Shown piece by piece: positions 28,097-28,951 of a stretch of DNA of 32,000 bases (within the stretch, counting starts at the first letter, position 1; every line of letters starts with the position of its first letter). The position numbers and the translations under genes are program-made. Location: the NCBI GenBank assembly GCA_016933055.1, contig JAFGBS010000004.1, forward strand, positions 1-32,000. Direction: 5' to 3'. The notes under the pieces are model-generated. The model was not told the DNA's origin. It worked only from the letters and a program-made list of their open reading frames with translations, and searched no databases. This stretch comes from Promethearchaeota archaeon. GTDB taxonomy: Archaea; Asgardarchaeota; Lokiarchaeia; Sigyniarchaeales; Promethearchaeaceae.

Positions 28097-28117
28097 GAAA
28101 CTTTATAGTGTATATAA
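28097..28117 (+). promoter_or_regulatory. Candidate BRE/TATA promoter for aIF1
   Basis: gaaa-ctttatag (28097-28108), with an alternative TATA gtatataa (28110-28117), in the 80-bp gap before the gene. Confidence 0.5.
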
Positions 28118-28143
28118 TTGAATTAATTGTGAGATGAAAAAAC

Positions 28144-28455
28144 ATACCAAAAGACTCGATTTGTCCAAAATGCTCCTTGCCAATAGATCTTTGTGTCTGT
28201 GAAAGTTTGAGTCAAGAAAATCAACGCATTACTATTTCTAATGATAAACGAAAATGGGGAAGAATCGTTACTGTAGTTACTTTCAACGGTGAGATCCCCG
28301 ATCTAAAGAAAATGTTGAAAAAAGCAAAGACTTTTTGTGCATCAGGTGGAACCATACGAGAAAATCAAATTGAAATCCAAGGAGAACATCGTCATAAAAT
28401 TAGAAAACTCCTTATTAAAGAAGGTTTTCCCATAGAAAACATCGAAATATTGTAA
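28144..28455 (+). CDS. sui1: Translation initiation factor aIF1 (SUI1/eIF1 family), probable ATA start
   Basis: ICPKCSLP.DLCVCE, KRKWGRIVTVV, CASGGT and IEIQGEH motifs. The conserved ICPKC lies upstream of the first canonical start (TTG 28177). The in-frame TGA at 28135 leaves only ATA 28144 or ATT 28159. Confidence 0.9.
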   Translation: MPKDSICPKCSLPIDLCVCESLSQENQRITISNDKRKWGRIVTVVTFNGEIPDLKKMLKKAKTFCASGGTIRENQIEIQGEHRHKIRKLLIKEGFPIENIEIL

Positions 28456-28480
28456 ACAATTCCAACTGTGGAGAGATATC

Positions 28481-28951
28481 ATGCAAGAAATGAAAAGTAC
28501 AGACAGTTATCAAGTATTTTTTACATCTAATCCTTCTTCTACAGAAAAAGACTTATTTCTTACATTTTTCTTTCAAGGCAATCCCATAGCTATTCGAAAT
28601 GACAAAGATCTTTTACCGTTACTGAAGAAATCCACTCAGATTGCTGAGAATTCCTTTACTATCCCCAGCATTGTGGATGTTATCTCAAATACAGCAAAAA
28701 ATTTGGAAGGGGTTTTTTCTTCCTACGTCGTGGTTATGTGGACAGAACGGGGGAGAAAGAGGAAAGAGGGAAAAGAAAGGGGTTTTCTTATTGGTAAGTC
28801 CAAAGAAGCGGGATATTATCTATTTGGGATTTGGCCATATTCCTATTTTTTAGAGATGGAAGCAAACATTGAAATCGCTGTGGATGGCATCAAAGATTTA
28901 ATAAACAATGGGAAATCTTACTCGGAAATTTTACTATTGACTGAAAAATAA
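28481..28951 (+). CDS. Hypothetical protein
   Basis: 156-aa ORF, ATG preceded by ggagag, co-oriented between aIF1 and rpoP. Confidence 0.75.
   Translation: MQEMKSTDSYQVFFTSNPSSTEKDLFLTFFFQGNPIAIRNDKDLLPLLKKSTQIAENSFTIPSIVDVISNTAKNLEGVFSSYVVVMWTERGRKRKEGKERGFLIGKSKEAGYYLFGIWPYSYFLEMEANIEIAVDGIKDLINNGKSYSEILLLTEK

Follow-up and report, generated by a model that had tools for sequence, protein, structure and literature searches.

The window, a stretch of 32,000 nucleotides of Asgard archaeal DNA, contains at 28138-28452 (+) an open frame of 105 codons that encodes the translation initiation factor aIF1. This frame matches Pfam SUI1 (PF01253) with 58.5 bits for a cut-off of 25.5 (58.8 bits in the genome scan), and according to the genome scan it is the sole SUI1 gene of the 3.76-Mb source genome. 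The encoded protein presents the CxxC-x6-CxC N-terminal knuckle by which archaeal aIF1 is recognized. It aligns with the aIF1 of M. jannaschii (4MO0, E = 2.6e-28) from chain residue 3 of the latter, so that the knuckle is covered by the alignment. The four cysteines of this knuckle are invariant in 20 of 20 diverse Asgard aIF1 sequences, and the gene is otherwise well conserved among relatives. On the strength of this homology and of studies published for P. abyssi and S. solfataricus, the protein is predicted to act in start-codon discrimination on the 30S subunit. Upstream, TATA-like elements sit in a gap of 79 nt downstream of an HD-domain gene. Directly 3' of aIF1, an ORF of 156 aa (window 28481-28951, +) is preceded by a GGAG Shine-Dalgarno (SD) motif and has no Pfam match. 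Three related loci (L266, L267, L268) share the succession of HD-domain gene, aIF1 and 156-aa ORF, and aIF1 is followed by this ORF also in L265, L269 and three more records. The features of the aIF1 locus are collected in Table 1.

Table 1. Features of the aIF1 locus, in coordinates of the window.
Feature	Position	Strand	Remarks
TATA-like elements, putative aIF1 promoter	28102..28118	+	TTTATA 28102-28107; TATATAAT 28111-28118
Imperfect Shine-Dalgarno motif GAGATGA	28131..28137	+	6/7 match to GAGGUGA; 6 nt before ATA
22-codon out-of-frame ORF from ATG 28134	28134..28202	+	Incidental; stop at 28200-28202
TGA in the aIF1 frame, closing it upstream	28135..28137	+	Coincides with the 3' end of the SD-like motif
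A-rich spacer AAAAAC between motif and start	28138..28143	+	Contains most of the six-A run 28137-28142
ATA, inferred near-cognate aIF1 start	28144..28146	+	Aligns with ATG, TTG and GTG of sister genera
aIF1/SUI1 CDS, re-called	28144..28455	+	103 codons plus TAA 28453-28455
Zinc-knuckle region CPKC-x6-CVC	28162..28200	+	Four Cys invariant; present in M. jannaschii aIF1
TTG, first canonical in-frame start	28177..28179	+	Site of the automatic call (92-aa product, P0005); rejected as real start
SUI1 domain	28219..28431	+	From the genome domain scan

The 5' end of the gene is unusual in that its frame is closed by a stop codon before any canonical start is reached. After the TGA, which the preliminary description had correctly read at 28135, the in-frame codons are AAA AAC ATA(28144) CCA AAA GAC TCG ATT(28159) TGT CCA AAA TGC TCC TTG(28177), with AAA and AAC alone between the stop and the ATA. 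The first in-frame ATG, GTG or TTG is the TTG at 28177, inside the knuckle, and the claimed lack of a usable canonical start therefore stands. The same description had placed the whole knuckle upstream of this TTG; this is true of the CPKC half, but the CVC half lies downstream. A run of 13 codons without ATG, GTG or TTG is not improbable by chance. What goes beyond chance is the conservation, among relatives, of the N-terminal peptide encoded in this run and of the ATA itself.

Families and genera are designated below by the anonymous codes of our search (f1, g1 and so on). In an alignment of 13 sequences, the column of ATA 28144 holds ATA in eight, TTG in two, ATG in two and GTG in one, and is followed by an invariant CC. 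The ATA is borne by the window, by the second genome of its genus (G001), by g2 and by five more database relatives, and within the same family the aligned codon is ATG in g5, TTG in g4 and GTG in g7. The sequence ATA-CCN-AAA is kept in all eight genus-level sequences, with a proline codon that varies synonymously between CCA, CCC and CCT. Across the alignment a proline codon (CCA, CCC, CCT or CCG) always follows the start, and lysine comes directly after it in all but g7. As these codons change synonymously while the residues are kept, the Pro-Lys codons must be translated, and the start lies at or before the proline. Since only AAA and AAC separate the stop from the ATA, this comparison makes ATA 28144 very probably the translation start of aIF1. 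The resulting product would be a protein of 103 residues with the N-terminus (M)PKDSICPKC. An AUA start had been proposed from the window sequence, together with a comparison of Asgard 5' regions as a check. The conserved ATA column, the constraint on Pro-Lys and the variable length of the preceding spacer bear the proposal out, and the orthologues do not all carry an in-frame ATG, the ATA being kept in eight of them. ATT 28159 had been named as an alternative to the ATA and was rejected: 21 nt separate it from the SD-like motif, and coding constraint already acts on the Pro-Lys codons that precede it.

We examined 140 aIF1 loci of the phylum, about 131 of which have the knuckle and an upstream stop. 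No in-frame canonical start precedes the knuckle in 74 of these ~131 Asgard loci, which belong to 9 of 26 families and have ATT, ATC, ATA or CTG in its place. In 58 of the 64 f3 loci, one to three stops precede an ATT (replaced by ATC in three genomes) that stands six codons ahead of the first cysteine. A AGGTTGTGA motif is found at a fixed 9 nt before the start in 51 of these 58 loci, and single-base variants of it in two more. In the other six f3 loci, the corresponding position is occupied by ATA or ATT, and the 'canonical' GTG falls within a AGGTTGTGA-type motif. ATA or CTG starts of aIF1 were seen in seven families beyond f3 and the relatives of the window. In f7, f14 (a record titled Candidatus Baldrarchaeum) and f20, ATA stands behind AGGAG(G). 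An apparent CTG start stands behind AGGAG or GGAAGGTG in f12 (L121, L124, L126, L128, L129) and f9 (L088, L125), at a position that is GTG in sister genera. The code f23 corresponds to Jordarchaeia. A near-cognate aIF1 start was found in none of 76 non-Asgard loci (ATG in 73 and TTG in 3, placed four to six codons ahead of the knuckle). Most of this set is from Bathyarchaeia; it also includes some Methanomethylicia, Methanofastidiosa and others, and the search patterns bias its composition.

The f3 motif has features of its own. In loci such as L014:1762-1851 (-) and L015:1462-1551 (+), the TTG-TGA 'start-stop' that it holds is in frame. At two central positions it differs from the SD sequence, and these mismatches never revert, a constancy that RNA structure does not explain.

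As a whole, these data seem best explained by an intact aIF1 made from AUA 28144, with a plausible negative feedback on its own synthesis, a reading to which we give a probability of about 0.55. The AUA would be read by the normal CAU initiator tRNA with a mismatch at the third position, and the imperfect SD motif GAGAUGA, 6 nt upstream, probably aids this initiation. Because a near-cognate start should be inefficient, and because aIF1 is expected to destabilise initiation complexes on such codons, negative feedback would be the most likely consequence: when aIF1 rises, initiation at its own AUA would fall. Judged separately from the start codon, feedback exerted by aIF1 on its own AUA appears plausible, at odds slightly short of even. 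This mechanism draws on the reports that aIF1 destabilises initiation complexes on non-AUG codons in vitro and that, in S. solfataricus, it rejects AUU complexes (PMC4705826, PMC6237735). Also, AUA, AUU, AUC and CUG are exactly the four near-cognate codons that initiate at 1-2% of the AUG level in E. coli (10.1101/063800).

The closest functional parallel is found in bacteria. Initiation factor IF3 is encoded by infC, which starts at AUU and is autoregulated at the level of translation. As in infC, a factor that rejects non-cognate starts itself begins at a near-cognate codon behind an SD motif, no usable canonical start is present, and the unusual codon is conserved in relatives. Likewise, the set of aIF1 start codons (AUU, AUA, AUC, CUG) is the near-cognate class of E. 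coli, and the codon has persisted across large evolutionary distances. The two genes differ in several respects. As a protein of the SUI1 fold, aIF1 is not related to IF3, and the likeness is functional only; the SD motif of aIF1 is imperfect in a genome where SD use is rare, and other genes of this genome seem to have near-cognate starts as well. Furthermore, repression by its own product is known for infC, whereas for aIF1 the likeness lies in the start codon.

According to Ivanov et al. (2010), as cited in PMC6237735 and PMC3326321, eukaryotic eIF1 starts at an AUG in poor context and is autoregulated. aIF1 is a SUI1-family homologue of this factor, with the same role in start-site stringency and a suboptimal start site of its own. 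Unlike eIF1, it has a start codon that is itself non-AUG, without any in-frame ATG before the knuckle, and a context device of the SD type instead of Kozak context and scanning. The preliminary description had suggested a bridge between the bacterial and eukaryotic systems. This suggestion is weak, as ATG, GTG or TTG is found in those sampled aIF1 loci that most resemble Heimdall- and Hodarchaeota-titled records. Given these canonical starts, the resemblance to eIF1 control is better read as convergence, and direct ancestry of the eukaryotic loop is not supported. In cultured relatives with complete genomes, aIF1 starts with TTG or ATG, so the feedback, if real, would not be universal.

In the literature searched, we found no description of non-AUG starts for archaeal aIF1. 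If AUA makes the synthesis of aIF1 sensitive to aIF1, feedback on the fidelity factor would tune start-codon stringency in archaea as it does in bacteria (IF3) and eukaryotes (eIF1, eIF5), which would point to a general principle of design at which unrelated or differently wired systems have arrived. We propose tentatively, as the broadest form of this idea, that Asgard archaea set the level of aIF1 through a near-cognate start (AUA, AUU, AUC or CUG), that the feedback logic exists in all three domains, and that the set-point of aIF1 is perhaps linked to an unusually frequent use of near-cognate starts at rps12 and other genes in these lineages. The feedback idea is directly testable in existing archaeal reconstituted initiation systems.

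The main competitor of this feedback reading accepts the AUA start and dispenses with any feedback specific to aIF1. In that case, these Lokiarchaeia would tolerate AUA, AUU, AUC or CUG at a minority of genes, aIF1 among them, with a low constitutive output or with nearly neutral effect. A model is provided by E. coli pcnB, where a weak AUU start limits expression without any factor feedback of its own and, unlike for aIF1, the product is not a fidelity factor. The gene of uS12 (G000 contig C22:43178-43618, +) would fit such a model. In this gene, no canonical start precedes the conserved PGSKSPRG N-terminus, and the apparent ATT start lies 6 nt after AGGTG. The same site is ATT, ATA or ATC in G001, G002, G015, G023, G039 and G020, and ATG in other relatives (loci L233-L262). 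Where aIF1 is near-cognate, uS12 appears to be so as well in six of about 20 genomes, versus none of seven where aIF1 is canonical, in a small sample of genomes that are not independent. The source genome contains about 36 further near-cognate candidates that are backed by an SD and precede the first canonical start of their genes. Candidates behind strong SDs are CTG after AGAGGTGA (C17:640337, +), ATA after AGGTGA (C15:150610, -) and CTG after GGAGGT (C26:1180, +), each with a family-like N-terminal motif upstream of the first canonical start.

These observations make near-cognate starts look like a habit of the lineage, of which aIF1 is the most consistent case. They also weaken the feedback reading, since uS12 and other genes appear to start in the same way, and the weak start may be such a general habit and not a dedicated feedback device. 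Nevertheless, a start without specific feedback remains rather unlikely in our judgement. The near-cognate start is far more consistent in aIF1 (17/30 strict, and throughout family f3) than in the control gene uS12 (3/30 strict, ~7/30 probable), and three codon types recur across nine families. Also, the genome-wide enrichment of SD motifs before near-cognate codons is weak (ATT 1.9% and ATA 1.3% vs 1.1% overall), in a genome where few genes have an SD.

In the source genome, the anticodon of the initiator tRNA is the normal CAU; this tRNA is the sole Met-CAU tRNA found, and has the A1-U72 pair and the three G-C pairs in the anticodon stem that are features of an initiator. No special initiator tRNA was found among the 26 tRNAs detected by aragorn without intron search. 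The initiator tRNA gene (C6:113980-114058) encodes its CCA end. The genome also has a tRNA-Sec (anticodon TCA), by which some UGA codons would be decoded as selenocysteine. The gene of aIF1A in this genome starts with ATG, which, like the ordinary initiator tRNA, speaks for the proposed reading of aIF1.

The contribution of the SD-like motif deserves separate attention. The 3' end of the 16S rRNA of the source genome is GGAUCACCUCC, on account of which GAGATGA matches the SD core GAGGUGA at six of seven positions. In SD motifs genome-wide, the A of GGAGGTGA peaks 4-8 nt before the start, a range that includes the 6 nt seen at aIF1; the SD-like element reported earlier is thus confirmed in both match and spacing. 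At the position of GAGATGA, relatives have GAGTTGA, AGGTGA or GTGTGA, and G001, L268 and L269 each carry a GAG[A/T]TGA or GTGTGA variant that ends 6 nt ahead of an ATA. An SD motif precedes only about one tenth of the genes of the source genome. As SD motifs are this rare, and as the TATA-like boxes permit a very short or absent leader, the role of the motif in aIF1 initiation is uncertain. The usual archaeal spacing of ~26 nt would put the transcript start near 28131 or near 28141-28144.

With the second of these positions, the mRNA could be leaderless or nearly so, beginning at A28144 or 1-3 nt earlier, with AUA used without the help of an SD and the xTGA sequence having a promoter-proximal role. 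The TATATAAT box is located 26-33 nt before the ATA, and C28143/A28144 fits a pyrimidine/purine start. Also, the g5 orthologues, which start with ATG, lack an SD and carry a TATAAAA box at 31 nt upstream, and the rarity of SD use in the source genome is reportedly shared by Prometheoarchaeum (PMC7531240). However, the TATA-like box of G001 lies ~47 nt from the ATA, and yet the geometry of xTGA and 6 nt is conserved there. A near-cognate codon at the very 5' end should serve very poorly as a leaderless start, as is established for bacteria. We consider this explanation improbable.

Searches for RNA structure gave negative results. The 5' region of the window folds no better than shuffled sequences (z = 0.09), the f3 aIF1 5' regions have no conserved RNA structure, and the Rfam scan returned no family above threshold. 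A sub-threshold match to PutA_thermometer (34.9 bits vs 51, E = 3e-4) at window 28391-28460 (+), which covers the 3' end of aIF1 and the gap to the next gene, is probably due to chance.

The distance between xTGA and ATA varies among close relatives. It is 6 nt in the window, G001, L268 and L269, which leaves the NTG of the motif out of frame and the TGA in frame, 5 nt in L267, L263 and G002, where the NTG falls in frame, and 7 nt in L265 and L266. Because of these indels of one and two bases, the stretch behaves as an untranslated spacer, a pattern that a coding sequence would not be expected to tolerate. The in-frame TGA and the out-of-frame ATG then appear as by-products of the SD-like motif. 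The preliminary description had also noted the ATG at 28134 and its 22-codon ORF. Both are present in the window, but they do not form a conserved element: a conserved uORF was rejected, as the ATG becomes TTG or GTG in relatives and its frame changes with the spacer (in frame at 5 nt, out of frame at 6 or 7 nt). In relatives with the 5-nt spacer, the in-frame NTG may also be used as a start.

This variation bears on the idea that translation begins at ATG 28134 and is followed by a +1 shift, through ribosomal or transcriptional slippage on the six-A run, to give MKNIPKDS... The run comes immediately after the ATG, and in two database relatives, P0003 and P0011, an in-frame NTG gives MKNIPKD. 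However, the NTG is ATG, TTG or GTG at an offset of 0, +1 or +2 among close relatives, which leaves no conserved 0-frame, and it lies inside the SD-like motif without an SD of its own. In genus g9 of f3, no A run exists and two or three consecutive in-frame stops precede the ATT. Six A are short for transcriptional slippage. The conserved 0-frame start and slippery run that mark programmed +1 frameshifting were not found in relatives, and such a shift has very little probability here.

Initiation at TTG 28177 would yield an aIF1 of 92 residues without the first two cysteines of the knuckle. This codon is the first canonical start in the frame and was chosen by the automatic call. Against it, the leucine codon is CTT in G001 and CTG in L268, no SD precedes it, and the CPKC sequence upstream is invariant in 20 diverse Asgard proteins and present in M. 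jannaschii aIF1, where the alignment begins at residue 3. A start at this TTG is hardly tenable.

A sequencing or assembly indel, with a true run of five A that would put the ATG in frame, would make the anomaly an artefact. Homopolymers are error-prone, and there is a precedent for an archaeal aIF1 gene that seemed broken close to its 5' end in the deposited genome: the 'interrupted gene' or 'frameshift' of S. solfataricus turned out to be a sequencing error, as settled by re-sequencing (PMC8211752). Unlike that case, the Asgard feature recurs in many independent assemblies. The succession of TGA, six A, C or T, and ATA is found also in G001, in L268 (GCA_016839865) and in L269 (a JGI metagenome); the spacer is 7 nt in L265/L266, and dozens of more distant genomes likewise have no canonical start. 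The in-frame TGA and the 6-nt spacer recur in four other assemblies, and the six-A run in three of the four, which makes an indel artefact very unlikely. Read-through of TGA 28135, or its decoding as selenocysteine, from the in-frame GTG 28129 is suggested by the in-frame GTG AGA TGA and the tRNA-Sec of the genome and can be set aside almost entirely, as the stop of relatives is TAA or TAG, doubled or tripled, or is absent (L265/L266), and neither the UGA nor the upstream peptide is conserved among them.

Automatic calls shorten aIF1, to 92 aa in the window, or give varying N-termini for identical DNA, and annotation of Asgard genomes needs ATA, ATT, ATC and CTG starts to be allowed. The NCBI pipeline itself called ATC or ATA starts of aIF1 at two loci of close relatives. 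These two loci, L265:28-348 and L266:401-697, come from two NCBI assemblies of one relative and have identical DNA across the aIF1 5' region and different calls, an ATC start (MIPKA...) versus an ATA one codon before the first cysteine (MCPKC...). In both records, aIF1 is named 'stress response translation initiation inhibitor YciH'.
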